From Nitrospira sp. (lineage in GTDB: Bacteria > Nitrospirota > Nitrospiria > Nitrospirales > Nitrospiraceae), in NCBI GenBank assembly GCA_035454625.1, contig DATIGP010000098.1, positions 9,391 through 73,390 of the forward strand: a DNA stretch of 64,000 bases, written 5' to 3'. Numbering within the stretch: the first letter of the stretch is position 1; the number at the start of each line of letters is the position of its first letter. The notes under the pieces are model-generated. The model saw nothing but the letters and a program-made list of their open reading frames with translations. It did not search any database and had not been told where the DNA came from. Positions 1-14,020 of the stretch are shown one piece after another. A program made the translations under genes and the position numbers.

Positions 1-1738
1 TCTCAACTCGTTGCCCGACCGGCGCCCGCAGGACGATGCGGAACTGACTCTCATCGGAAACCGGCAGGAACTCCGTCCCGATCATCGGAATCAAGGTAAG
101 TGACCCGACAAAGATCAGCAGCACCATGGTAATAAAGATCCGCCGATGTCCCAGAACCCACTGCAACGCCTCCTCGTAGCCTCTATCGAGAGACTCATAT
201 CGACGACGGCTCCACTCCATCATTGCGATAAACCAAGCCGGCATGGTCCGCCTTACGTCTTGTTCAGCCTTGAGGAACTTGTAGCAGAGCGCCGGCGTGA
301 CCGTTCGTGAGACCAGGAAAGAAGTAAAGAGCGCAATGGCAATCGTCACGGTGAGCGGTATCAACAACAGACGCGCGACCCCGACGACGAAGAACATCGG
401 GAGGAAGACCACCACGGTGGTGACGGTTGAAGCAAAGATCGGCATCGCCACTTCTCGGGCCGCGTCGAGAATGCCGTTCCACCGGTTGGGATTTGCATTG
501 AGGTGGCGCTGGATGTTCTCCAGCTCCACGATGGAATCGTCGACAAGCCGGCCGATCCCAAGCGCGAGTCCGCCGAGGGTGAAGACGTTGAGAGTCTGAC
601 CCGTAAAATAGAGCACAATAAATGTGACGAGCATGGAAAGAGGAATGGCTACGGAGATGATCGCGGTACTCGTGAGATTGCGCAAGAAGATCAGAATGAC
701 GGCCGCGGCCAACAGCGAACCGTGAAGAGCCTGTTCGATCAGATTGTTGATAGATTGACGGATATAGAGGGACTGATCGAATGAAATGCCGAGTTTGACT
801 CCTTCCGGGATGCCGAACATCCTGGGGATGGCCGCGCGCAGGGCGTCCACGACCTCGACCGTGTTGGCAATCGGTTGCTTGTTCACACGAAGAAACACCG
901 ATCTGGCTCCATCGGCATGGACGATGTTTGTTTGGATATCGGACGAGTCCGTCACGGTCCCGATGTCGCGCACGCGGACCGGATTGCCTTGCTGATTCAC
1001 CTTGACGATGACGTCTTGGATGGGCTCCACTGTCCGAAACTGGTTGTTCGTAAACACATTGTAGTCGAGGTTGCCGGCTTTGATGTCGCCGGAGGGCAGG
1101 ATCACATTGGCGGCTTTGACGGATCTCACAACGTCCAAAATGGAGAGCCCGCGGGCGCTGAGGAGCGCCGGATCGAGGTTGATATTGATCTGACGGATCT
1201 TGCCTCCTTCGACGGTTGCCGCTGCAACGTTGGCGATCTGCTCAATCTGCGGGGCGATCGTGTTGTAGGCGAGGTCGTACAGCGCCCGTTCGTCGAGCGC
1301 ATCACTTGAGACCGAAACGATCGAAACGGGTATGTTCGAGACATCGAACTTGACGATAAAGGGTTGGAGAATGCCGGGTGGGAGACTGTTTAGAATCTGG
1401 GTGATCCGCTGCATCACCTCCATTTGACCGACATTAATATCGGTCCCCCAGTTGAACCAGATCTGCACGGCTCCGAGGCCTTGTTTACTGAACGATTCGA
1501 CATGTTCCACATTCGACGCTGAACTGACGGCTTTTTCGATCGGGTATACTACGCTCTGTTCGATGTCCAGCGGAGGCGCTCCCTTATAAATGACACCGAC
1601 GAAAGCGACCGGAACCTGGATTTGCGGGAAGAGGTCAACCGGCAAGCGTTGGAGAGACGTCAGCCCCAATACCACCAGCGCGAGCGACAGCATCAGGATG
1701 CCGATGCGATTGCGTAATGCGAGTAGAGTCAGCCACAT
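1..1738 (-). CDS. RND efflux permease (AcrB/CusA/MdtB family), N-terminal part; runs off the window start
   Basis: Manual minus-strand translation from ATG 1738: MWLTLLALRNRIGILMLSLALVVLGLTSLQRLPVDLFPQI...GRLVDDSIVELENIQRH (RND TM4 D-D motif). Lies downstream of an MFP gene. Not in the ORF track because the stop is outside the window. Confidence 0.93.
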   Translation of the reverse strand, partial: MWLTLLALRNRIGILMLSLALVVLGLTSLQRLPVDLFPQIQVPVAFVGVIYKGAPPLDIEQSVVYPIEKAVSSASNVEHVESFSKQGLGAVQIWFNWGTDINVGQMEVMQRITQILNSLPPGILQPFIVKFDVSNIPVSIVSVSSDALDERALYDLAYNTIAPQIEQIANVAAATVEGGKIRQININLDPALLSARGLSILDVVRSVKAANVILPSGDIKAGNLDYNVFTNNQFRTVEPIQDVIVKVNQQGNPVRVRDIGTVTDSSDIQTNIVHADGARSVFLRVNKQPIANTVEVVDALRAAIPRMFGIPEGVKLGISFDQSLYIRQSINNLIEQALHGSLLAAAVILIFLRNLTSTAIISVAIPLSMLVTFIVLYFTGQTLNVFTLGGLALGIGRLVDDSIVELENIQRHLNANPNRWNGILDAAREVAMPIFASTVTTVVVFLPMFFVVGVARLLLIPLTVTIAIALFTSFLVSRTVTPALCYKFLKAEQDVRRTMPAWFIAMMEWSRRRYESLDRGYEEALQWVLGHRRIFITMVLLIFVGSLTLIPMIGTEFLPVSDESQFRIVLRAPVGQRVE

Positions 1739-1747
1739 ATCTGAAGA

Positions 1748-1820
1748 TCGTGAAACGTTAAACGTGCAACGTGCAACGCGGCAATAAGGTGCGAACTGCG
1801 TTGCGGTTCACGGTTTACGA
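1748..1820. repeat. Intergenic inverted repeat built of degenerate heptamers (GTGAAAC/GTTAAAC/GTGCAAC x2, with complementary units on the right arm)
   Basis: tcgtgaaacgttaaacgtgcaacgtgcaacgc ... gcgttgcggttcacggtttacga, between the MFP stop and the RND start. Confidence 0.6.
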
Positions 1821-1835
1821 ATAACAAGTTAGGCC

Positions 1836-3002
1836 TTATAACGGCTGGGTTTGAACCGGTGTGCCGTCATGTACGAGGTCTTTCCCTGCGACGATGACCC
1901 GTTCATCACCCGTCAAACCTTTGGTGATTTCTACGCGATTGCCGCTAAGGGCCCCGATCTCGACATCCACTCGACGGGCTTTCCCCTCTCGGACGACATA
2001 GACATATTGTGTATCTTCCAGCCGGCTGACGGCATCAATGGGAATCTGCAACGCTTGGCGATGAGTTCCCACCATCACGTCGACCCGGGCGAACATTCCG
2101 CCTTTTAGCCGGCGATCCCGGTTAGGTAAGTCAATTTCCACGGTCATTGTACGTGTCGCGCGATTCAAAGCCTGGACGATGCGCGTGACGGTACCTTCGA
2201 ACAGGTGGTCCGGATACGCTTCCGCACGGAGCTCTGCCTTCTGGCCTATCTTTACCAGAGGAATGTCCCGCTCTACGACTTCGATCAACACCCGGACCGT
2301 ATTGATGTCGTGCAGACTCATGATGCCCCGCGACATTGTCGAGGTACTTGCGGTGGCGCTGCTTACATAGGCTCCGGTATCTAAGTTTCGCTCTGCGATA
2401 TAACCGGAAAATGGAGCTCGGATGTAAGAGTACGCTAAGTTCGTCTCCGCCTGGGCTAGGGCCACCTTCATTTGATCGACCTGCGCCTGCAGGGATTCGT
2501 GTGCGGCTTTGGCGGCGTCGAAGTTCACCTCCGCATTATCCAGGTCTTGCTGGGAGACGAATTGGTCCTTAATCAGGGCCTGCATGCGATCGAACGTAAT
2601 TTTGGCGTTGCGAACCACCGCATCCTGTTGCGAGACCTTGGCTTTGGCGGCCGAAAGGTTGGCTTTTGCCTGATTGACGGCATGTTGATAGTCGGTATGG
2701 TCGATTTCAACGAGCAACTGATTCGCCTTGACGAAATCACCCTTATCGACATGCAGTTTGGCGATGTATCCATCGACCCGGGAAAAAATATTGACCACTT
2801 GATTAGGGGAGATGTCCGCCGTGTAGGTTAGCCGAATATCCAGATCTTGCCGTAGGGCGGACATAGTGCCTACCGTGATAAGTCGTGTCTTCTTCGTGTC
2901 GCTTTTTGCACCCGTACTCAGGCGAAAGACTACAAGCGCCATGATCGAGATGAAGATGACAACCCCAAGCGTTAGAAACGGGTGTCGGACGAGTCGACTC
3001 AT
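1836..3002 (-). CDS. RND efflux periplasmic adaptor (membrane fusion protein)
   Basis: 388 aa ORF. N-terminal TM, lipoyl half-motifs (SRVDGYIAKLHVDKGDFVKANQLL; IRAPFSGYI), coiled hairpin, beta-barrel. Confidence 0.93.
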   Translation of the reverse strand: MSRLVRHPFLTLGVVIFISIMALVVFRLSTGAKSDTKKTRLITVGTMSALRQDLDIRLTYTADISPNQVVNIFSRVDGYIAKLHVDKGDFVKANQLLVEIDHTDYQHAVNQAKANLSAAKAKVSQQDAVVRNAKITFDRMQALIKDQFVSQQDLDNAEVNFDAAKAAHESLQAQVDQMKVALAQAETNLAYSYIRAPFSGYIAERNLDTGAYVSSATASTSTMSRGIMSLHDINTVRVLIEVVERDIPLVKIGQKAELRAEAYPDHLFEGTVTRIVQALNRATRTMTVEIDLPNRDRRLKGGMFARVDVMVGTHRQALQIPIDAVSRLEDTQYVYVVREGKARRVDVEIGALSGNRVEITKGLTGDERVIVAGKDLVHDGTPVQTQPL

Positions 3003-3021
3003 GTGGTGCCTGTCGGATCAG

Positions 3022-3664
3022 TTAGAAATCCGGCGGCTGCCGGACGAACCCGCCGAGGAAAAGAGACACATATTGGATCACTGTGGCTTCATGGGACAGG
3101 TGCATGGGTAATCCGAAGATATCATGCAGTAGCCGATGGTGGAGGATGACACCAAAGAAGGCTTTGGCGGCAAGCACGGGGTCGACTGGGCGGAACGCGC
3201 CATCCTCGATGCGTCGGCGAATGTAGCCGACTAAGTGATCGTGAAAGACACGATATTGCTGAAAAAACTTGTTGGAACAGCTCATGTCCTTCCAAGGTAC
3301 TGAAAAGGAGGAGGCGAAACAATGCCGGACCTGCCCCCCTCCTTACTCGATAGTCGGCGAGCAACGTGAAGAGCCGTTCGTCATCTCGTCTCTTGGTAGC
3401 TTCTTCGACAGCTTCCCGCAGCCCGGAATATTGAGCCTTTTCTGCAAGAATTGCGGTGTACAATGCCTGCTTGGTCGGAAAGTGTTTGAAGCGCAGTGCC
3501 TCACTGCCACCGGCTGCCTTGGTGATTTGGTTCGTGGTCGTTCCGGTAAAGCCGTTTGCGGCAAACACCGATGTCACAGCACTGATCAGGCTGGCTTGCC
3601 GCTCATGACCTGAGGTTCGTGAGGGTTGACGCCGTTGAGGGGATGATATCCGTGTTCTACCCAC
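3022..3664 (-). pseudogene. TetR/AcrR-family regulator split by a +1 frameshift
   Basis: The HTH (GFTGTTTNQITKAAGGSEALRFKHFPTK) is in ORF 3122..3718. The C-terminal domain (SNKFFQQYRVFHDHLVGYIRRRIEDGAFRPVDP) is in ORF 3022..3285 in a shifted frame. Junction ~3262-3278. Confidence 0.8.
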
Positions 3665-3669
3665 GGTGA

Positions 3670-3718
3670 GTAAGTAATTACTGACCACAAAGTAGCATGA
3701 GACTTGTATCAATGACAA
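3670..3718 (-). promoter_or_regulatory. Putative sigma70 promoter (TTGTCA-N18-TACTTT, extended -10) with a downstream palindromic TetR-type operator
   Basis: -35 at 3718-3713 and -10 at 3694-3689. Near-palindrome GTAAGTAATTACTGAC at 3670-3685 just upstream of the GTG at 3664. Confidence 0.45.
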
Positions 3719-3876: not shown

Positions 3877-4314
3877 TTAGACCTGGGCCACTGATTGGGC
3901 GCAGAGATACGCCCGCATCCGATCACAATCACAGCGGCTCGCTTCCTTGAACTCCACACCAAATAGAGATCCCGCTGTCCAGGCGACCGTTGCTTCCGAA
4001 ACGAACAGGGGTTCCTCATCGTTCGGCAGATACAAAAACAAGGTTAGTTCCATACCCACGTTCACCGGACAATTTCCACGGATCCCCAACCCGCATTCGG
4101 ATAGGTCGACAACGCTACCGTCTCCAATGAGAACATCCTCCCCATGGACACCTGAGTACATAAGGCCAAGGGAGACACAAGTTCTGCCCATTCTACGGCG
4201 CTCGATTGATTGAGATGAGTGAATTGATTCCGATAGCCCTAAGTGCTTCTTGTGTTTCATCGCTCCACCTCCTGTCTGCAGGCCTATTTCGATTGGATTG
4301 CGATCCTCGGTCAT
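3877..4314 (-). CDS. PilZ-domain protein (c-di-GMP receptor)
   Basis: RRMGR (RxxxR) and DLSECG (D/NxSxxG) motifs, with a beta-barrel-like C-terminus (VAWTAGSLFGVEF). Confidence 0.8.
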   Translation of the reverse strand: MTEDRNPIEIGLQTGGGAMKHKKHLGLSESIHSSQSIERRRMGRTCVSLGLMYSGVHGEDVLIGDGSVVDLSECGLGIRGNCPVNVGMELTLFLYLPNDEEPLFVSEATVAWTAGSLFGVEFKEASRCDCDRMRAYLCAQSVAQV

Positions 4315-4613
4315 AATTGGCCAAGCACCAGTTCATCAAAATCTGGCAGCTTGCGTCTTCGGTCTGAAAAACGGTTCCTTTAGTTAGAGATTTCGTATGG
4401 ATGAAGGCTAGCGCTTAGAGTCAGTCTTGCCTTCCCACTGGAGGAGGGGGAGCGCACAATTCAGAAGGGGGGAGTATAGAGGATAAAAGAGAGTAACTCC
4501 ACGTGTCATGTAGCTGCTTTGAAGAATGGCTCTATACACAGTATGCCATGGCAAGCCTGTTCCTAGAAAGAACCCTGGCGATGTAGGCAGTGCACAATGG
4601 GGAGGACGTTGGA

Positions 4614-5021
4614 CTACATTAGTCGGAATCGGGTTCGTTGATCACTCACGGTGTTGTGGGAGATGCTTTTCCAAATGAAGGATTGCAGCCGCTTTCGGTG
4701 CTCTCGGGTCAGATCCATGAATCGGACAGAAAACTGACAACCTGACACCCACACAACATGCGCCGATTTCAATATAAGTTGGGGTAATCCATCGGGAAGT
4801 GCAATCGTAAGGGTCAATAATGTTCCCCGCGTCACTGGGCGGTCGCTGACGACATGGCACCCAGAAACAGATATGTTTTTTGTGAGGCCTTCGCCTTGGT
4901 GAGGTTGCGTCGGAACTTCCCCGACATAGCGCACTCGACACGTGACAGCGACACGTTCTGCATAACGGTTATCTAAAGGCACATAGGGTTTTCGGCCGTT
5001 CATCGTCAGTTTCACCATCAT
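4614..5021 (-). CDS. PilZ-domain protein
   Basis: RYAER and NISVSG motifs; VVWVSGCQFSVRF. Confidence 0.82.
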   Translation of the reverse strand: MMVKLTMNGRKPYVPLDNRYAERVAVTCRVRYVGEVPTQPHQGEGLTKNISVSGCHVVSDRPVTRGTLLTLTIALPDGLPQLILKSAHVVWVSGCQFSVRFMDLTREHRKRLQSFIWKSISHNTVSDQRTRFRLM

Positions 5022-5153: not shown

Positions 5154-6872
5154 TTACTGCCGGATCTTTGCCCAGGCTTTTTGGTATTCCTCGAAGGAAT
5201 CGACCTCCATCCATCCCTTGAAAATCGGTACAGCTTGGGTGTGATGGCCCTGGTCAATCAGCTCTTGCAGCATATCAGTAAAAGAGGCTTTGGACAGGCT
5301 TGCTGATTCGTGGAACGGGGATGACTCATGTTGTTTCTGGACGCGGTGATAGCACTCGCGAAGGGCTTGAGTTCCTTTCTCCGAGAACATGGCCATACCG
5401 ATGAATTCCCCATGCGCCTGTTCGCGCGGAAGTTGTTGGCCGATCTTCACCACCTGGTGCTCACCTTCCGGCATGACAAATCGGGACAAATAACTTTTGC
5501 CGGGTGGGGTGGCCAGTGAGACAAGGTCCGGATTAAGATGAGTCGGTTGAATATTCCGTTGTTCCTGATCAAACCAGGCTAAATCAACAACCAACGCAAT
5601 GTCGGCGGGGCTCTTGAGCAATTTCTCAAGAATCGAGGTATCAAAGATGATATCGCCGTACAGGACGATGGTCCGCCCGCGCAACTCATTTTCGGCACAA
5701 AAGAGCGAAACGAGCTCGCCCGTTTCCTCGTAACGGTCGTTATCGTAGTAGCGGATGTTGGGGAGCGAAATGGCTTCTTTTTTATACCCGCGAACCAAGG
5801 CGATTTCTTTGATGTCGCATTCGTTGAGCGCGCTGACCTGGCGATCGAGGATCGTTCGCCCTTTAATGTCGAGCAAGCACTTCGGCTTGTCTTCGATCAA
5901 CGGCAGGAGCTGTTTTTCGAATCCGGCGGCGGCGATAATCGCCGTAATTCGTTCGCTACCCATCGGCAAGAACCGTTTCTCATCTTGCTCCATTTCCGGG
6001 ACGCCGACGATGTCGTACACTTGAGGTAGCGTGACGATTCGGTCGTTGGCCGCGCCGGGGCGCGAGTCCTTCTTGATGAGATCCAACGTGTCCGTCATTG
6101 CTTGAATTGCGGCCCGTACCGGTTGGTTGGCATAGATAATGATCTTCGCACCGGCTTCTTCCATTTCCGCCGCAGTGGTCTGATCGAAAATCGTCGGAAC
6201 AACGACCAGCGGGACGCGTCCGGACCACATTTTGTACACGGCCTTCAGCTCGTCGAATTTTTTCGATTTCGAATGGATCAGGATTGCGTCCGCTCCCGCG
6301 TCGGCATACGCTTCGGCCCGCCTCAAGGCTTCCTCTTGTCCCCAACCGGCGATGAGAGCCTCCGTCCTGGCGATAACCATGAACTCCGGGGAAGTTTGAG
6401 CGGCTTTGGCCGCTCGAATCTTGCCGCAGTGTTCCTCAATGGGGATCAATTCGCGTCGAACGCCCGCGTAGAAACTGCAGCGTTTTGGATAGACGTTGTC
6501 TTCAATACAAATGGCAGCCACGCCGGCTCGCTCACGGTCTGTGACGGTCCGCATGACGTTCAGCGCGTTGCCGTAACCGGTGTCGCAGTCCGCGATCACG
6601 GGAATGCTCACGGCCTCAACGATATTGCGTTCGATGTCGAGCTGCTCGCTCGAAGTGATAAAACTGGCGTCAGGGATGCATTTAAGCGAGGCGGAAATGG
6701 CAAAGCCGCTCGCCCAGACACCGTCGAAGCCGGCGCGTTCGATGAGACGGGCGCTGAGTGCATCGTGCGCACCGACTACTCTCAAGGCCCCCGGCTTTTT
6801 TAATGCAGCTCGAAGTTTTGCGGCGTTGGTCATCAAGGACAACATGATGGGAAAGCGTGTGGCTGTTGTCAA
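5154..6872 (-). CDS. PEP mutase / isocitrate-lyase superfamily enzyme fused to a C-terminal nucleotidyltransferase domain (probable start 6833)
   Basis: GAHDALSA, WASG, ADCDTGYG, ARTEALIAGWG, DAILIHSK, VPT and YANQ match the PepM/phosphonopyruvate hydrolase clade. The C-terminal half has IIAAAG..KPKCLL..KG, YGDIIF and WMEVDSFEEY. Confidence 0.88.
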   Translation of the reverse strand: MTTATRFPIMLSLMTNAAKLRAALKKPGALRVVGAHDALSARLIERAGFDGVWASGFAISASLKCIPDASFITSSEQLDIERNIVEAVSIPVIADCDTGYGNALNVMRTVTDRERAGVAAICIEDNVYPKRCSFYAGVRRELIPIEEHCGKIRAAKAAQTSPEFMVIARTEALIAGWGQEEALRRAEAYADAGADAILIHSKSKKFDELKAVYKMWSGRVPLVVVPTIFDQTTAAEMEEAGAKIIIYANQPVRAAIQAMTDTLDLIKKDSRPGAANDRIVTLPQVYDIVGVPEMEQDEKRFLPMGSERITAIIAAAGFEKQLLPLIEDKPKCLLDIKGRTILDRQVSALNECDIKEIALVRGYKKEAISLPNIRYYDNDRYEETGELVSLFCAENELRGRTIVLYGDIIFDTSILEKLLKSPADIALVVDLAWFDQEQRNIQPTHLNPDLVSLATPPGKSYLSRFVMPEGEHQVVKIGQQLPREQAHGEFIGMAMFSEKGTQALRECYHRVQKQHESSPFHESASLSKASFTDMLQELIDQGHHTQAVPIFKGWMEVDSFEEYQKAWAKIRQ

Positions 6873-7586: not shown

Positions 7587-8084
7587 ATGATGGAAAGTGA
7601 CGTGTTCGTGCAATCTATGCAAGACATGGGGGTCAATTTTTTCACCGGCGTACCGGATTCGATCCTGGGCGGAATCATTGCGGAACTCATGAACCGCCGA
7701 CTCTATACCCCCGCGGTTCGGGAGGATGAAGCGGTCGGTATGGCTGCGGGCGCGTATATGGCCGGAAAAACCCCCGCCGTGCTGATGCAGAATTCGGGAC
7801 TCGGCACCTCTCTCAATACGCTCATTTCTCTTAACGTGATCTATAAACAACCCTGCATCCTGATCGTTTCATGGCGGGGCCAAGGAGGCAAGGATGCGCC
7901 TGAACATTTGGTGATGGGAGAAGTGATGCCGCAATTGCTCGATACCGTCAAAATCCCGCATCGTACCTTGACTGAAAAAACGGCCATTGAAGATTTCAGG
8001 TGGGTGGCTCAGACGTTCATGCAGCGACAGATTCCCGTCGCGTTGTTCATCACCAAGGGGGTCGTGAAGGGGTTGCATCCGTGA
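7587..8084 (+). CDS. Phosphonopyruvate/sulfopyruvate decarboxylase alpha subunit (Ppd-N / ComD-like)
   Basis: FFTGVPDS, REDEAVGMAAG, MQNSGLG, WRG..DAPEH motifs. Confidence 0.88.
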   Translation: MMESDVFVQSMQDMGVNFFTGVPDSILGGIIAELMNRRLYTPAVREDEAVGMAAGAYMAGKTPAVLMQNSGLGTSLNTLISLNVIYKQPCILIVSWRGQGGKDAPEHLVMGEVMPQLLDTVKIPHRTLTEKTAIEDFRWVAQTFMQRQIPVALFITKGVVKGLHP

Positions 8085-8662
8085 GGCCCGAGCAAGGCAC
8101 ATTGATCAGCCGGGCCCAGGCCATGGCGGCCTTGCTGGAGTTGCTGACCGATCAACCCGTCGTTATCTGCAACGGGTTTCCCTCGCGCGAGGCTCACAAG
8201 GTCGCGGATCGACCCACCCATTTCTACATGATCGGCTCCATGGGGAACGCCCCCGCGATCGCGCTCGGTGTCGCACTCGCCAAACCGAATAAACAGGTGA
8301 TCACCTTCGATGGCGACGGAAATGTATTGATGGGAATGGGGACGCTCGCAACGGTGGGTGCCTTGAAACCGAAGAATTTCATCCACGTCGTACTCGACAA
8401 CGAAGTGTACGGAACGACCGGAAACCAGCCGACAATCTCCAACGTGGTACCGCTGGAGAAAGTGGCGATGTCGGCGGGCTACGTGAATGTGGAGCGGGTG
8501 CGTGATCGCGACGATCTGGTCTACGAGTTCAGAAACATGCTGAAAAAAGACGGCCCCAGCATGTTGCTCATCAAGGTGAACGAATTTGTGGAAGATGCCG
8601 GCCGGGTCCTGCTCGATCCGCCGGACATCACCCGCCGGTTCATGAAAGCGATTGAGCGATAG
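8081..8662 (+). CDS. Phosphonopyruvate/sulfopyruvate decarboxylase beta subunit (TPP-binding; Ppd-C / ComE-like)
   Basis: FYMIGSMG, TPP motif DGDG...LDN and TTGNQPT. GTG start overlaps the alpha-subunit stop. Confidence 0.88.
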   Translation: MRPEQGTLISRAQAMAALLELLTDQPVVICNGFPSREAHKVADRPTHFYMIGSMGNAPAIALGVALAKPNKQVITFDGDGNVLMGMGTLATVGALKPKNFIHVVLDNEVYGTTGNQPTISNVVPLEKVAMSAGYVNVERVRDRDDLVYEFRNMLKKDGPSMLLIKVNEFVEDAGRVLLDPPDITRRFMKAIER

Positions 8663-8809: not shown

Positions 8810-9892
8810 GTGATTCTCCTCAATCCCGGTCCTGTGAATGTCTCTGAACGGATACGGCAGGCTTTGGTGAAGCCCGATATCTGCCATCGGGAAGATGAAT
8901 TCTACGAATTGCTTCACCGCATCCAAGCCAAGCTGCTCAAGGCCTTTGTCCCAGGAGCTGAGTCGGACTACGTCGCCGTCGTGATGACGGGATCGGGGAC
9001 GGCCGCCGTCGAAGCGGCCTTGATGTCGTCACTCCCTCACGGCCGCCGTATGCTCATCCTCAATAACGGCGTCTATGGTGAACGGATGTCTCAAATCGTG
9101 GGGCTCAATCGTCTGGGGGTGAGCGAGTTGAAGTATGAATGGACGAGTCGTCCCGATCCGGAAAAATTGCTTCTTGCCTTGCGACAGCACCAGGAAGTGC
9201 ATGCCGTCGGCATGGTGCATCATGAGACCACCACCGGCCTCCTCAATCCCGTCCACGAGATCGCCGAAATCGTCGATAATCAAAATCGGGTATTCGTGCT
9301 CGATGCCGTCAGCGCTCTGGCGGGCGAGACGATCGACATTGCACGGTCGCACATCTATATGGTGGCGGGGACGGCCGGAAAGTGTATCCAGGGGTTTCCA
9401 GGGGTCTCCTTCGTGCTCGTGCGGAAGGGGTTCATCGAGAAAATGCGCTCGTACCCGAAGCGCTCGTGGTATCTCCATCTCACCCATTACATCGACAACG
9501 ACGGGCGAGGCACGATTCCTTTCACGCCCGCGGTACAGGTCTACTATGCTTTCGACGAAGCGCTCGACGAGCTTCTCGAAGAAGGCGTGGCCAATCGCAT
9601 CCAACGGTACAAAAAGATGGCGGCCCTGATCCGTGAACGAATGGCTAAGCTTGGTGTCAAGGCCCTTCTTCCGGCGGACCGGCAATCGAATACCATCACG
9701 GCCTATCACCTGCCGGATGGTATGTCCTACCGGACGTTACATGACCGCCTCAAGCAGCAGGGGTATGTCATTTATGCCGGTCAAGGCAACTTGGAAAACA
9801 AGATCTTCCGCGTGGCCAATATGGGGGCTTTATCCGAGGCGCAGTTCGGCGGGTTCCTCGACGCCTTCGAGCACGTGTGCAAATCATCATGA
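8810..9892 (+). CDS. Class V PLP aminotransferase, 2-aminoethylphosphonate transaminase-like (AepZ/PhnW family)
   Basis: LLNPGPV, GSGTAAVE, NNGVYGER, HHETTTG, DAVS, PLP lysine in GKCIQGFPG, PFTP, IYAGQG. Confidence 0.88.
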   Translation: MILLNPGPVNVSERIRQALVKPDICHREDEFYELLHRIQAKLLKAFVPGAESDYVAVVMTGSGTAAVEAALMSSLPHGRRMLILNNGVYGERMSQIVGLNRLGVSELKYEWTSRPDPEKLLLALRQHQEVHAVGMVHHETTTGLLNPVHEIAEIVDNQNRVFVLDAVSALAGETIDIARSHIYMVAGTAGKCIQGFPGVSFVLVRKGFIEKMRSYPKRSWYLHLTHYIDNDGRGTIPFTPAVQVYYAFDEALDELLEEGVANRIQRYKKMAALIRERMAKLGVKALLPADRQSNTITAYHLPDGMSYRTLHDRLKQQGYVIYAGQGNLENKIFRVANMGALSEAQFGGFLDAFEHVCKSS

Positions 9893-10608
9893 AGGCCGTC
9901 ATCCTTGCAGCGGGGGTCGGAAAACGTCTGTGGGAGGTCACCCAACACCGTCCGAAATGTCTCATCGAGATCGGGGGGCGTTCGCTCCTGCGGCGCTACT
10001 TGGAGTCGCTAGCCTCCGTCGGCATTCGCCGCGCGGAGATCGTCGTCGGGTACAAACAGGAGATGATTCGTGCGGCGGTCGAGCAGGATGCGTGCGGTGT
10101 CAAGGTCACGTTCTTGGTCAACGAACAATTTCACAGAGGCAGTATTTCGTCACTGTGGATTGCCCGAACGGCGCTCGATGACGATATCATCGTGATGGAC
10201 GCCGACGTGCTGTTTCATCCGGAGATCCTCCGGCGTCTGGTGTCCTCGCCCTCTGAAAATGCGTTGTTGATGGATGAGACGGTAAAGCAGACCGGAGAAG
10301 AATGCATGGTGGTCGTGGCGGGGGGGCGAGTGATCGCACTGACAAAGAACATGCCGGAACAGTATGACCATGCCGGTGAAGGGGTGGGATTTCTTCGGGT
10401 TCGGCATGCCGACACGCCTCGCGTCGTCTCATCGCTCCGAAGCTGCATCGACAGAGGCTCGTGGGATATGGAGTACGAAGACGCGCTGCGGCAGTATTTT
10501 CAGGACGTGCGGGTCGGTTATGAACGGATCGGGGGACTGCCTTGGACCGAGATCGATTTTATCGAAGACGTAAGAAAAGCGGAATTGGAAGTTTTGCCAA
10601 GATTATGA
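9889..10608 (+). CDS. Phosphocholine/phosphonate cytidylyltransferase-family nucleotidyltransferase (LicC/PntC-like)
   Basis: MKAVILAAGVGKRL...PKCL, MDADV, GEGVG, WTEIDFIED. ATGA overlap with the aminotransferase. Confidence 0.87.
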   Translation: MKAVILAAGVGKRLWEVTQHRPKCLIEIGGRSLLRRYLESLASVGIRRAEIVVGYKQEMIRAAVEQDACGVKVTFLVNEQFHRGSISSLWIARTALDDDIIVMDADVLFHPEILRRLVSSPSENALLMDETVKQTGEECMVVVAGGRVIALTKNMPEQYDHAGEGVGFLRVRHADTPRVVSSLRSCIDRGSWDMEYEDALRQYFQDVRVGYERIGGLPWTEIDFIEDVRKAELEVLPRL

Positions 10609-10629: not shown

Positions 10630-12132
10630 ATGTCCGAGAAAACGAAATCTGCGCAAGGGACCACCGGGCCAGCAGACACAGTTGTCGATGGAACCATGAG
10701 TAAGAGCGTCCTTCAACGGAAGGCCGAAATCCAAGGACTGGCGACGGCGATTCTGTTGCCGTCTGAAGGGGTCTTCGGCGGTCCGACCGACCAACCCGTA
10801 GGCGACGTGGGGCCCCTAACAAGCGTCGTGGGGATCGGGCTCTTTCAACGAACCGTGCTCACGTTGCAACGGGCCGGGATTCGCCAATTAATCGTCCTTT
10901 CCGGTTCGGAGGAGGAGCAGCTGAAACAAGCGCTCGGCAAAGGGCCGCGCGTCACGATTCCCGTCCGCTGGATGCCGATCCGTGAATTTCCCCTCGATGA
11001 TCCTCGGACATGGGAAGCCTTGGCGGCCGAAGTGCATGGCTTTGCGCTGATTACGGGCGTCAATAGCGTGTTCTCTCGAGGGCTGATCGAACAGCTGCGA
11101 CGCGACGTGCAGGACGGCCAGGCCATCGTGGTCTCCCAAGCCTCACCGGAGCAGGTCGATCGGGTCATGGTGCAAGGCGTGCGATCGAAAGTCCGGTCCG
11201 GTCGCCCGGCGGCCCTCGCTCTTCCTTGTTTCGACGATCCGGCCCTGCGTGTCGCTGAGCTGGTCGTCGTGCCGGCAAGCCTGATGAGCAACGCCAGTCA
11301 AGCGGCGAGCGAGAAGGGAGGCCCCCCGATCCGCCAGTGGCTGGACCGGGCCGCGGCGGATGGTCGAGTGCGTATTGTCTCGGCTGGAGAAAAGCGGGGG
11401 AATTGGTATCACGCAGTCCGGACCAGGGCCGACGTCCAAACGGCCGAAAAGAAGTTGTTCAGTTCGCTCAAAGGTGAATTCGAAGGCTTTGTCGATCGCT
11501 ATTTCAATCGCAAGGTCTCTCGCTGGTTCACGCGCCTCTTTCTCGTCATGGGGCTCTCCCCCAATTCCATCACGGTCCTCGCCGGATTGATCGGTTTGGT
11601 TGCCGCCGCCGGCTTTGGAATGGGTACGTACAGCACCGGTATCATGGCCGCCCTCTTGTTTCAATTGGCGGCTGTCATCGATTGTTGCGACGGAGAAGTC
11701 GCGCGGTTGACCTTTACCGAATCGCCCTTCGGTGCCTGGCTCGATATTGTCTTGGACAACATCGTGCACATGGCGATTTTTGGCGGCATTGCCGTGGGAC
11801 TTTATACGGCCCACATCGGACAGGCAGATGACTGGGTCCCTCTCGCGCTGGGTGTGGCGGCGGTGTTCGGCAACGGCCTCTCATTTTTACTTGTCGAAAG
11901 AGCGCAAAAGGTTAAATCGCTGAATGGCTGGAGAAGCCCGGCCCATGCCGCGTGGGCGGACGTCATGTTGAAAAATGTCGCCAGCCGGGATTTCTCAGCG
12001 GCCTTACTGGGCTTTGCCCTGTTCGATCAGCTCTATTGGTTTCTACTCTTTGCAGCAGCAGGCTCCTGGCTGTTTGCCGGCGCCATGATATGGGTCATCC
12101 GCCCATCTGCCGTCTCATCTCCTCGGCCATAA
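10630..12132 (+). CDS. CDP-alcohol phosphotransferase with a large N-terminal nucleotidyltransferase-like domain
   Basis: Signature DCCDGEVAR-x8-GAWLDIVLD, GFVDRYFNR and SPNSIT, with multiple TM helices. N-terminal VVGIGLFQRTVLTLQRAGIRQLIV resembles a degenerate NTase. Confidence 0.85.
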   Translation: MSEKTKSAQGTTGPADTVVDGTMSKSVLQRKAEIQGLATAILLPSEGVFGGPTDQPVGDVGPLTSVVGIGLFQRTVLTLQRAGIRQLIVLSGSEEEQLKQALGKGPRVTIPVRWMPIREFPLDDPRTWEALAAEVHGFALITGVNSVFSRGLIEQLRRDVQDGQAIVVSQASPEQVDRVMVQGVRSKVRSGRPAALALPCFDDPALRVAELVVVPASLMSNASQAASEKGGPPIRQWLDRAAADGRVRIVSAGEKRGNWYHAVRTRADVQTAEKKLFSSLKGEFEGFVDRYFNRKVSRWFTRLFLVMGLSPNSITVLAGLIGLVAAAGFGMGTYSTGIMAALLFQLAAVIDCCDGEVARLTFTESPFGAWLDIVLDNIVHMAIFGGIAVGLYTAHIGQADDWVPLALGVAAVFGNGLSFLLVERAQKVKSLNGWRSPAHAAWADVMLKNVASRDFSAALLGFALFDQLYWFLLFAAAGSWLFAGAMIWVIRPSAVSSPRP

Positions 12133-12156: not shown

Positions 12157-13164
12157 GTGTTGCGCTACATTTTACTGGCCCTTGGCCTCATCGTCCTGAG
12201 CCTTCTCGTCTGGCATATCGGTCCCGCCAATATTTACGAGGCCGCGACACGACTCGGTCCTACTGCCTTGCTCGCCGTCCTCATCCCCTCGGTCGTCATG
12301 TATTCCGTTGAAGCCTATGGGTGGAAAGTCGTGTTGGGACGAGCCGCCCGTGGAATTCCGTTTTGGCGACTGCTGACGATTCGGACCGCCGGCGAGGTGG
12401 TGAATATGACGACTCCGACGGCCTATCTGGGAGGCGAACCGCTGAAAGCCTATCTGCTCAAAAGACACGACGTGCCCATGGCGGAGGGAGCCGCGTCGGT
12501 CGTGATTGCGAAGACGACCATGACGATCGCCGAAGTGTTCTATATCCTCACGGGTATCGCCCTAGCTTTTTGGATTTTGGGGGCCGGCAGCTCCGCGGGG
12601 CAGACGATCACGGCGGCACTGCTGAGTGTTGGATTGCTCGTGTGTTCAATCGCGGGATTTGTTTTTATCCAACAGCGCGGGCTTTTTGCATCGATTCTGT
12701 CATTGGTGAAGAAACTGGGCGTACGAATCCAGTTTCTGGAAACGCAGGAGGAACACCTGCGCTCGATCGACCAGACGATCCGGAATTTCTACAGCCACCA
12801 TCAAAAAGCCTTTTATGCTTCGATGGGGGTGTACTTTTTGGGTTGGATGGCAGAATCGTTGGAGGTGTTCGGGATCATCTACTTGCTCGGCGGTTCGGTC
12901 AGCATCTTGTCCGCCCTCTCCATCGGTGCGCTCGCGGTGTTCATCAAGGGCGGCTCTTTCTTCATCCCCGGCAGTTTGGGCGCTCAGGATGCCGGCAATC
13001 TCCTGCTGCTCCAGGCTTTCGGCTACAGTGACGTGACAGGCATCACGTTTGCGCTGCTGCGGCGGTTTCGTGAGCTGGTGTGGATCGGCATCGGGCTGTT
13101 GTGCTTGGCAATGGTAGGAAAAGCCCGGATACCGCAGGCTCAAGAAGGGGAAAATTCTTCCTGA
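12157..13164 (+). CDS. Lysylphosphatidylglycerol-synthase TM / flippase-like protein (UPF0104/AglD2 family)
   Basis: Polytopic membrane ORF with GEVVNMTTP..LGGEPLKAYLL, IPGSLGAQD and LLRRFRELVW. Confidence 0.8.
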   Translation: MLRYILLALGLIVLSLLVWHIGPANIYEAATRLGPTALLAVLIPSVVMYSVEAYGWKVVLGRAARGIPFWRLLTIRTAGEVVNMTTPTAYLGGEPLKAYLLKRHDVPMAEGAASVVIAKTTMTIAEVFYILTGIALAFWILGAGSSAGQTITAALLSVGLLVCSIAGFVFIQQRGLFASILSLVKKLGVRIQFLETQEEHLRSIDQTIRNFYSHHQKAFYASMGVYFLGWMAESLEVFGIIYLLGGSVSILSALSIGALAVFIKGGSFFIPGSLGAQDAGNLLLLQAFGYSDVTGITFALLRRFRELVWIGIGLLCLAMVGKARIPQAQEGENSS

Positions 13165-13625
13165 GCAATGGTCCGAAGCCGTTCGAGCATGCGATCCCAC
13201 ACAAAGCCGTGGAGCCGAAAATCCGCCGCCCGCTCCACCTTGTGAAACTGAAGTCCCATTCGATTCCCCAGGACCCATCGGACCTCCGCCTCTTCAACCG
13301 GGAGTGACTGTGTTTGATCGGGGAGGATCAGCCGTATACGGAGTGTGGTCCGCTGCGGCGCGGCACCGTCACACTCGATCGCACAGCCGAATACCGTGAG
13401 ATTCATCACCTTCCCTTCCGCGATCGTTTCCGCATCGGAAAACATCACGGGATACTGCACGGCGAGAGGGACTCGGTAGTGATTTCGAAAATAAGGACGT
13501 GTGGGTTCCACGGTGGCCCAGTCTAGTCGGCCTCGCGCGGCAGAATGAATCCCCCTTTCGCGGGGACAAGCAGCGTTTCTCGGAGTTGCCCGGAGCCTTA
13601 CACGATGAAGGGCGCGCCCATTCAC
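13140..13625 (-). CDS. PilZ-domain protein
   Basis: RNHYR and NLTVFG motifs; AEVRWVLGNRMGLQF. Confidence 0.75.
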   Translation of the reverse strand: MNGRALHRVRLRATPRNAACPRERGIHSAARGRLDWATVEPTRPYFRNHYRVPLAVQYPVMFSDAETIAEGKVMNLTVFGCAIECDGAAPQRTTLRIRLILPDQTQSLPVEEAEVRWVLGNRMGLQFHKVERAADFRLHGFVWDRMLERLRTIAQEEFSPS

Positions 13626-14020
13626 GCCGAGTAGTGCTTATTCAGGAGTTCACGTTGGAATTGGATGATATGCCTGATCAGCAGTTCTCGATCTTGATTG
13701 GCTATCCTGACGAAGCGTCCGTGGAGGCGGTAGGTGTTGGATGGATAGGTGATGGGATCGACGCGCAGCACCTCAAGAGACGACTTGAAGAGCACTTGGC
13801 CGGGAAGGAGCAGGGTGCAGGTGAGGATTGCGCCCACCTCGAAGACTTGGTTTAGGGTGATGCCGATGCCGCCTCCGCTGATGTTGACGGACCGCTGGAG
13901 GAGCGTGGCCTCCGCCTCGTCGCCCTCAACCTGAAGACAGATCGGCAAGGGAACGGTGATGCGATAAAACTCTCGACGATCTTTTGGAGACGGCTGCGGA
14001 GGCGGGGGATCCGATGGCAT
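13622..14020 (-). CDS. PilZ-domain protein
   Basis: REFYR and NISGGG motifs. Stop overlaps the next PilZ start. Confidence 0.8.
   Translation of the reverse strand: MPSDPPPPQPSPKDRREFYRITVPLPICLQVEGDEAEATLLQRSVNISGGGIGITLNQVFEVGAILTCTLLLPGQVLFKSSLEVLRVDPITYPSNTYRLHGRFVRIANQDRELLIRHIIQFQRELLNKHYSA

Follow-up and report, generated by a model that had tools for sequence, protein, structure and literature searches.

A 64,000-nucleotide stretch of a Nitrospira sp. genome (GenBank assembly GCA_035454625.1, contig DATIGP010000098.1, positions 9,391 to 73,390 of the forward strand; hereafter the window) encodes on its minus strand a 559-residue fusion of a phosphoenolpyruvate (PEP) mutase-like domain with a nucleotidyltransferase-like domain. 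The gating loop of the fusion reads EDNVYPKRCSFY, while that of canonical PEP mutase (PepM, or Ppm) is EDK-x5-NS. On the evidence of sequence, predicted structure and genome context, the protein is most probably isofunctional with canonical PEP mutase despite its differently built lid, and feeds synthesis of phosphonolipids that carry 2-aminoethylphosphonate (AEP). The existence of the gene was already known, as it is annotated as “phosphoenolpyruvate phosphomutase” (JGI) and “isocitrate lyase/PEP mutase family protein” (NCBI). What is new is that the loop defines a conserved subfamily spanning four phyla (hereafter Cys-type), with the lid ED-N-x-[FY]-P-K-R-C-S-[FL]-Y...R in place of the canonical ED-K-x-F-P-K-x-N-S, together with genomic evidence that points to its equivalence with canonical PepM.

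The Cys-type lid and its scaffold

The open reading frame (ORF) occupies 5154-6872 on the minus strand and, by the ORF list and translation, is open up to a TTG at 6872. Since the close homologues are 559 residues long, the ATG at 6833 is the likely start, which places the gene at 5154-6833. Residues 1-292 (5958-6833) form the PEP-mutase domain of the ICL/PEPM superfamily, and residues ~295 to 559 (5154-5957) a MobA/LicC-like nucleoside triphosphate (NTP)-transferase domain (PF12804). The latter carries AAGFEKQL where the GxGxR signature of PntC/LicC-type enzymes is expected, as do 62 of the 67 Nitrospirales loci in which the scan found the signature, and perhaps has no catalytic role or a different one. 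The closest protein matches were from Nitrospira (83-94% identity; N. moscoviensis, 87%).

The translation of 5154-6872 contains AAICIEDNVYPKRCSFYAGVRRE around the gating loop. Numbered from the ATG at 6833, the motif runs E111, D112, N113, V114, Y115, P116, K117, R118, C119, S120, F121 and Y122 (6468-6503, minus strand; Mytilus E114 to H125), and the stretch from C-I-E111 through Y122 is encoded by 6468-6509. The preliminary description had reported the loop at 6472-6503, an interval that the translation confirmed to cover E-D-N-V-Y-P-K-R-C-S-F. Direct reading of the sequence gave TGC (gca on the plus strand) at 6477-6479 as the codon of Cys119. In Mytilus numbering the loop carries K116N and N122C, and the diagnostic E-D-K-x5-N-S is absent (EDNVYPKRCS). 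Alignment with Streptomyces PepM (5UNC; IEDKRFPKVNSF), phosphonopyruvate hydrolase (PPH, 2DUA; MEDKTFPKDTSL), Mytilus PepM (LEDKLFPKTNSL) and E. coli PrpB (EDQVGAKRCGHR) upheld the earlier motif comparisons and the label “hybrid” given to the protein: KRC is shared with lyases and the following Ser with PepM and PPH, while the GH of lyases is missing. Cys119 sits where canonical PepM has Asn122, PPH has Thr118 and methylisocitrate lyase has its catalytic Cys123.

EDN[VM]YPKRCSFY was present in all 120 close Nitrospira homologues, and the Cys loop in 80/80 Nitrospirales species loci (one as EDS). With a 57%-identical representative as seed, a further search gave 119 proteins of 55-81% identity from other phyla (Sorangium cellulosum, Minicystis and Polyangiales of Myxococcota, Planctomycetaceae of Planctomycetota, and Bdellovibrionota), 118 of which read EDN[IVS]FPKRCSFY. 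All loop codons varied synonymously while the residues stayed fixed (Cys as TGC in 73 and TGT in 11; four codons each for Arg and Ser), which argues for purifying selection. Such conservation is far beyond what chance or sequencing error would produce, and the loop is not a sporadic mutation. Among the best 150 50%-identity clusters from a 1.8-billion-protein library, 135 had a near-full domain; with the query and three manually added close Nitrospira copies counted in, the loop was EDK..NS in 87 clusters, EDN..CS in 18 and EDN..NS in 14, with a few others including PPH-like EDK..[TS]S. Passing from Cys (TGY) to Asn (AAY) takes two substitutions, and Ser occupies the position in a few lineages.

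By its top matches the domain is of PepM/PPH type: PF13714 scored 200.6 bits, the PepM and PPH family models scored far higher than those of PrpB and carboxyvinyl-carboxyphosphonate phosphorylmutase, the leading PDB entries were PepM and PPH (best match, PepM 5UNC, E 7e-89), and lyases stood as outgroup. The catalytic set D55, D82, D84, E111, K117, S120, R156 and H187 (Mytilus D58, D85, D87, E114, K120, S123, R159 and H190) was invariant in 64 Cys-type sequences. In particular, the Mg2+ ligands D58/D85/D87/E114, the phosphoryl-holding R159 and H190, K120, S123 and the ED of the motif were common to the Cys-type and the 87 canonical clusters. On the other hand, comparison of 16 Cys-type clusters with those 87 revealed seven positions that separate the two types, five of them within the gating loop: N113, R118, C119, Y122 and R127, corresponding to Mytilus K116, T121, N122, H125 and Q130. 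F44 (Mytilus L48), in the substrate-binding SG[LF] segment, also separates the types, and R69 is a weaker discriminator. The AlphaFold model had a pLDDT (predicted local distance difference test) of 87.8, lower in the loop (72-80), as is expected of a mobile lid. It shared the fold of canonical PepM (TIGR02320; Mytilus edulis 1M1B/1PYM, Streptomyces platensis 5UNC) at 37-51% identity over the aligned structure, with template-modelling (TM) scores of 0.96 for 5UNC and 0.92-0.95 for Mytilus PepM; PPH gave 0.95-0.96 and methylisocitrate lyase ~0.88. The barrel and catalytic floor are thereby predicted to be those of PepM, the lid alone having been rebuilt.

Natural exchange with canonical PepM in Nitrospirota

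In the window the fusion gene lies divergent from a six-gene operon for a split phosphonopyruvate decarboxylase (Ppd; PpdA and PpdB), an AEP transaminase (AEPT), a PntC-like cytidylyltransferase, a CDP-alcohol (CDP-OH) transferase and an HpnL-like membrane protein. Surveying 201 Nitrospirota genomes with TIGR02320 and the window's AEP transaminase, we found an orthologue of the transaminase (63-100% identity) in 41. Exactly one PepM-like gene was present in 40 of these 41 genomes, canonical in 34 and Cys-type in six (13 canonical versus six Cys-type within the window's genus). The 34 canonical genes were PepM-NTP fusions with the loop EDKLFPKTNSF[IL], ~38-40% identical to the Cys-type, and scored 383-396 bits with TIGR02320, versus 267-277 bits for the six Cys-type genes of the survey and 267-303 bits for Cys-type genes at large. 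In eight of nine genomes tested, and on the complete N. moscoviensis chromosome (CP011801.1, PepM gene in the region 568635-569444), the Cys-type gene was the sole PepM-like gene above 200 bits, with no second one that could supply phosphonopyruvate. If the Cys-type enzyme lacked mutase activity, the carrier genomes would need another phosphonopyruvate source.

The PilZ-flanked PpdA-PpdB-AEPT-PntC-CDP-OH-HpnL operon was also present in canonical-type genomes. Its identity to the window was 65-93%, falling to 41-46% for CDP-OH and HpnL in the most distant genome (G096). From its site beside that operon the Cys-type gene was gone, by a clean deletion in G197. A sister Nitrospira with canonical PepM elsewhere (G044) retained a pseudogene remnant (locus L113, G044:C29, 6681-6911), in which a 107-bp piece of the PepM domain, covering residues 214-262, abuts the last 43 codons of the Cys-type gene. 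The canonical gene of G197 is located between truA and cysE/ispF, a site that was empty in three Cys-type genomes including that of the window. On the AEP-transaminase tree (row G112, mis-extracted, was disregarded) canonical and Cys-type states interleaved, with a parsimony count of four changes, at least two of which were forced by well-supported branches. Reciprocal, mutually exclusive retention of two distant homologues beside one pathway is what functional redundancy predicts, and this natural swap, the decisive evidence in the comparison, indicates that the Cys-type is equivalent to canonical PepM.

The preliminary description had left two options, a divergent PepM clade discarded by motif filters or an enzyme of different chemistry. 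The former is favored by the placement among PepM and PPH, by the retained catalytic residues outside the loop, by the position as sole PepM-like gene beside a Ppd/AEP-transaminase pathway to which canonical PepM is likewise coupled, and by the evolutionary interchange of the two types in Nitrospirales genomes; different chemistry becomes a minority reading.

We also considered whether the Cys-type enzyme and the split Ppd form an obligate co-evolved pair, an idea rejected since this split-Ppd operon serves the canonical-type Nitrospirales too. The canonical Nitrospirales fusion was 74-85% identical among the genomes of loci L104-L111 (G197, G203, G017, G160, G096, G167 and G140), and its neighborhood differed from that of G197 in all six others, which suggests relocation or repeated insertion. 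In G160 it adjoins a second split Ppd pair (34-35% identity).

Proposed mechanism, alternatives and origin of the lid

PepM binds its substrate via Mg2+, with R159, H190 and, hypothetically, N122 and S123 in contact with the phosphoryl group (PMC7916636). We propose that the Cys-type enzyme would convert PEP to 3-phosphonopyruvate with a lid that closes through different contacts: Arg118 and Arg127 may replace the polar contacts of Lys116 and Asn122, while apolar Cys119, Tyr122 and Phe44 would exclude water from the closed site. An acid/base role like that in the lyases is improbable for Cys119, since the His partner of KRCGH is missing. The adjacent two-subunit Ppd would pull the unfavorable equilibrium forward; the decarboxylation product would be transaminated to AEP, which the stand-alone cytidylyltransferase would activate with CTP and the CDP-alcohol-type transferase would place on a membrane lipid.

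Several observations weigh against an isofunctional mutase: i) The fusion protein fails to reach the trusted cut-off of any equivalog model, i.e., PepM (TIGR02320, 273.4 bits; cut-off 319.55), PPH (TIGR02321, 265.7; 374.4), PrpB (TIGR02317, 199.4; 354) and carboxyvinyl-carboxyphosphonate phosphorylmutase (TIGR02319, 147; 420); ii) Asn122 is a reported phosphoryl contact, and most authors put the difference between mutase and hydrolase (PepM versus PPH) down to N122T on the mobile lid (review, PMC7916636), so that a Cys there might alter the reaction; iii) The one-or-the-other rule is not absolute, as genome G005 holds both PepM types and G073, the one exception among the 41, carries the operon's AEP-transaminase orthologue (68% identity) with no PepM-like gene at E<=1e-5; iv) No obvious Ppd was seen near the Cys-type gene in one Planctomycete locus; v) Literature searches on Nitrospira or Sorangium yielded no enzymology or phosphonate chemistry for Cys-only organisms. 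G073 is of the same family, 100% complete and in 20 contigs, and may reflect either AEP salvage or an assembly gap.

Maximum-likelihood trees were built with the loop columns removed and rooted on six lyases, five of them KRCGH proteins of Nitrospirota and the sixth E. coli PrpB, on a sampling biased towards the query's relatives. The lyases formed the outgroup at 100/99 support, and an EDQ..KRC[GA] clade was sister to all other ingroup sequences (100/98, then 99/96). Cys-type and EDN..NS lineages occupied a poorly resolved basal region, with most EDK..NS sequences nested further in. The PPH sequences clustered tightly; one tree nested them among canonical EDK sequences, the others placed them in the unresolved backbone, and in none did they group with the query. 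The phylogeny that the preliminary description had called for places the protein on the PepM/PPH side of the superfamily, with PrpB and other lyases outside, and left both a Cys-type clade and a basal grade standing: the Cys-type was a single clade in 0/200 bootstrap trees, and the approximately unbiased (AU) test of its monophyly gave p 0.052, no clear rejection. Intermixed with the Cys-type at the tree base were further PepM-like clusters (representatives P0138, P0147, P0164, P0215, P0250 and others) that read EDN..PK[RT]NS, and so retain the Asn but not the Lys, and others that read EDN..[HS]S; both kinds would also fail a strict EDK filter.

The same C-P bond might arise through another mechanism or be controlled in another way, with the lid Cys participating directly (e.g., by carrying the phosphoryl group as a transient phospho-Cys, by shuttling a proton or by serving as a redox-sensitive gating-loop switch) in an enzyme that remains isofunctional in the pathway but mechanistically distinct from canonical PepM. 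The Cys is absolutely conserved, co-varies with five other lid positions and F44, and sits at the exact catalytic-Cys position of lyases in the same K-R-C context, at a place that according to the literature adjoins the transferring phosphoryl group (PMC7916636). However, the His of KRCGH is replaced by F or L, both residues to which the accepted dissociative mechanism assigns the holding of the phosphoryl group (R159 and H190) are unaltered, and the occasional Ser or Arg in relatives (EDNAYPKRSS, KRRS) suggests that a thiol is not strictly required. We regard direct participation of the Cys as improbable.

Lyase or hydrolase chemistry (a phosphonopyruvate hydrolase, a PEP-consuming hydrolase or a C-C lyase, with the Cys as general acid on the enolate), in which no C-P bond would be formed, is in our estimate very improbable. 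It could draw on the KRC triad shared with methylisocitrate lyase, on the missing Lys after ED, on the near-equal scores of the PPH and PepM models (266 versus 273 bits), and on the position of Cys-type lineages near the base of the PepM/PPH radiation, beside the EDQ..KRCG clade. PPH (PalA) in particular matched the protein at E 1.5e-71, shares the ED...PK..S framework and likewise departs from PepM at position 122; yet it has EDK..PKDTS with Thr there, where the Cys-type has Cys. The lyases (PrpB, TIGR02317) share the superfamily fold and K-R-C at equal loop positions, but are only ~29-33% identical to the Cys-type and read EDQ and K-[KR]-C-G-H, whereas here EDN precedes KRC and S-F follows it, without the GH. 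Moreover the neighboring genes are those of a biosynthetic route (Ppd, AEP transaminase, cytidylyltransferase and lipid transferase), and in the window we found neither a prp operon nor the catabolic surroundings of PPH (the phosphonoalanine transaminase palB, a transporter and a LysR regulator). In Cys-only genomes the conserved Ppd would have no other phosphonopyruvate supply, and the gene was reciprocally replaced by canonical PepM, not by a lyase.

Least probable of all appears a catalytically dead, regulatory or scaffold paralogue, the operon running on imported AEP or phosphonopyruvate. That G073 keeps the AEP-transaminase orthologue without PepM indicates that the operon may work without an endogenous mutase, and the fused NTP-transferase domain already looks degenerate; but the metal- and phosphoryl-binding residues are all invariant, the loop is under strong purifying selection, and exclusivity with an active canonical PepM in 40/41 genomes is not expected of a dead enzyme.

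As for the origin of the isofunctional mutase with its alternative lid, K-R-C is the outgroup state whether the Cys-type is a clade or a grade. It is thus simpler to suppose that a lyase-like ancestor passed the lid on than that six co-varying changes were invented several times; we infer that the Cys lid was so retained. A bolder version holds that the ED-N..K-R-C-S enzymes are surviving intermediates between the C-C lyases (KRCGH) and the EDK..NS mutases, with the thiol still directly involved. We consider it unlikely. If true, C-P bond formation arose on a Cys-bearing, lyase-type lid before the “diagnostic” Asn, the thiol would serve as phosphoryl carrier, proton shuttle or redox gate, and nitrifiers, myxobacteria and others would hold a mechanistically distinct class of C-P bond formers.

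Gene neighborhood, related systems and phosphonate surveys

The divergent operon lies on the plus strand. It opens with the alpha subunit of Ppd (TPP_enzyme_N; 7587-8084), whose ORF is open from 7389 and probably starts at M67 (orthologues, 165-170 residues), followed through a GTGA start/stop overlap by the beta subunit (TPP_enzyme_C; 8081-8662). By family match this two-subunit thiamine pyrophosphate (TPP) decarboxylase is of Ppd or sulfopyruvate-decarboxylase type. Downstream are the class V AEP aminotransferase (8810-9892; TIGR03301, 348.8 bits, cut-off 360.8), the stand-alone PntC/LicC-like cytidylyltransferase with an intact GxGxR signature, AAGVGKRL (9889-10608), a 500-residue membrane protein with a C-terminal CDP-alcohol phosphatidyltransferase domain (10630-12132), and a flippase-like membrane protein of the HpnL/LPG_synthase_TM type (12157-13164). 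Sulfopyruvate or coenzyme-M-like chemistry was suggested by the ComDE-like split of the decarboxylase, whose beta subunit scored slightly higher on the sulfopyruvate model; it was rejected because the transaminase is of AEP type (349 bits) and because a cytidylyltransferase and a CDP-alcohol transferase need a phosph(on)ate.

Genomic coupling to Ppd, as known for PepM, was found well beyond the window. The divergent arrangement with split Ppd, AEP transaminase and PntC recurred in 59-61 of the 80 Nitrospirales loci, 54 of which also had the CDP-OH transferase and 48 the HpnL-like gene; the remaining loci were mostly cut by contig ends. In deep-branching Nitrospirales the fusion gene stands beside lpxC instead of the operon, and a split Ppd was found elsewhere in the genome in all six tested genomes that lacked adjacency. 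The pairing of the Cys-type with Ppd also occurred in Sorangium cellulosum So0157-2, a Bdellovibrionota metagenome-assembled genome and N. moscoviensis. At two of the deep-branching loci (L079 and L080, 8100-11677) the fusion gene directly follows lpxC and a small unannotated ORF and is remote from Ppd, a location that puts it beside an outer-membrane lipid A gene.

Four genes for PilZ-domain proteins (cyclic di-GMP receptor type) bracket the phosphonate cluster (3877-5021 and 13140-14020, both on the minus strand). These flanks are kept in sister genomes with either PepM type, and the PilZ genes may have a regulatory connection with the cluster. Downstream of the mutase gene (2-3718, minus strand) are a TetR regulator, an HlyD-type membrane-fusion protein and an AcrB-type resistance-nodulation-division (RND) pump, in a gene order that is repeated in N. 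moscoviensis (L140).

The C-terminal PF12804 domain gives the Cys-type the same architecture as the canonical Ppm-PF12804 fusions of Rice et al. (2019). As described in PMC8942020, the “Group 1 phosphonolipid” or “Burkholderiales_CDP-OH” neighborhood (Yu et al. 2013, cited therein) resembles the Nitrospira cluster in its Ppm-PntC-like fusion, Ppd, AEP transaminase, second PntC and two phospholipid-type membrane genes, including a CDP-alcohol transferase. By comparison with that description, the Nitrospira cluster differs in its Cys-type first enzyme, split Ppd, lack of a 2-oxoglutarate (2OG)/Fe oxygenase and HpnL-like last gene. Bacteriovorax stolpii, a known maker of sphingophosphonolipids, was considered as a validation case and set aside as uninformative on the Cys-type, its Ppm having passed the strict-motif filter of Li and Horsman.

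The preliminary description had further held that motif-filtered surveys under-count phosphonate producers. This is correct for strict-motif inventories, which would drop the Cys-type, but not for surveys based on gene context or on KEGG Orthology (KO), which already count such genes. Rice et al. (2019; PMC6697681) defined Ppm by a strict EDK-x5-NS filter and removed 22 fused PF13714 proteins without the motif, and Li and Horsman (2022; PMC8942020) applied the same kind of filter. Acker et al. kept up to two motif mismatches if the gene adjoined Ppd, and a KO-based lake study lists pepM in Nitrospirota (PMC10734540). That mention was the only one we found in the literature on PepM or phosphonates in Nitrospira or Sorangium and on motif variants, which held no biochemistry.

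A hard EDKx5NS filter thus under-counts probable phosphonate producers by at least 80 Nitrospirales species representatives, among other carriers such as Nitrospira moscoviensis, Sorangium, Planctomycetes and Bdellovibrionota. For the enzyme family, position 122 is thought to help set mutase versus hydrolase, and a natural Cys there offers a probe of what the lid requires; as this is also the catalytic-Cys position of lyases, it likewise probes the evolution of PepM from lyase-like ancestors. N. moscoviensis, which has the Cys-type only, and S. cellulosum are both cultured. Nitrospira are ubiquitous nitrifiers, and if their membranes carry phosphonate head groups, these bacteria would be a further source for the phosphonate pools of the environment.

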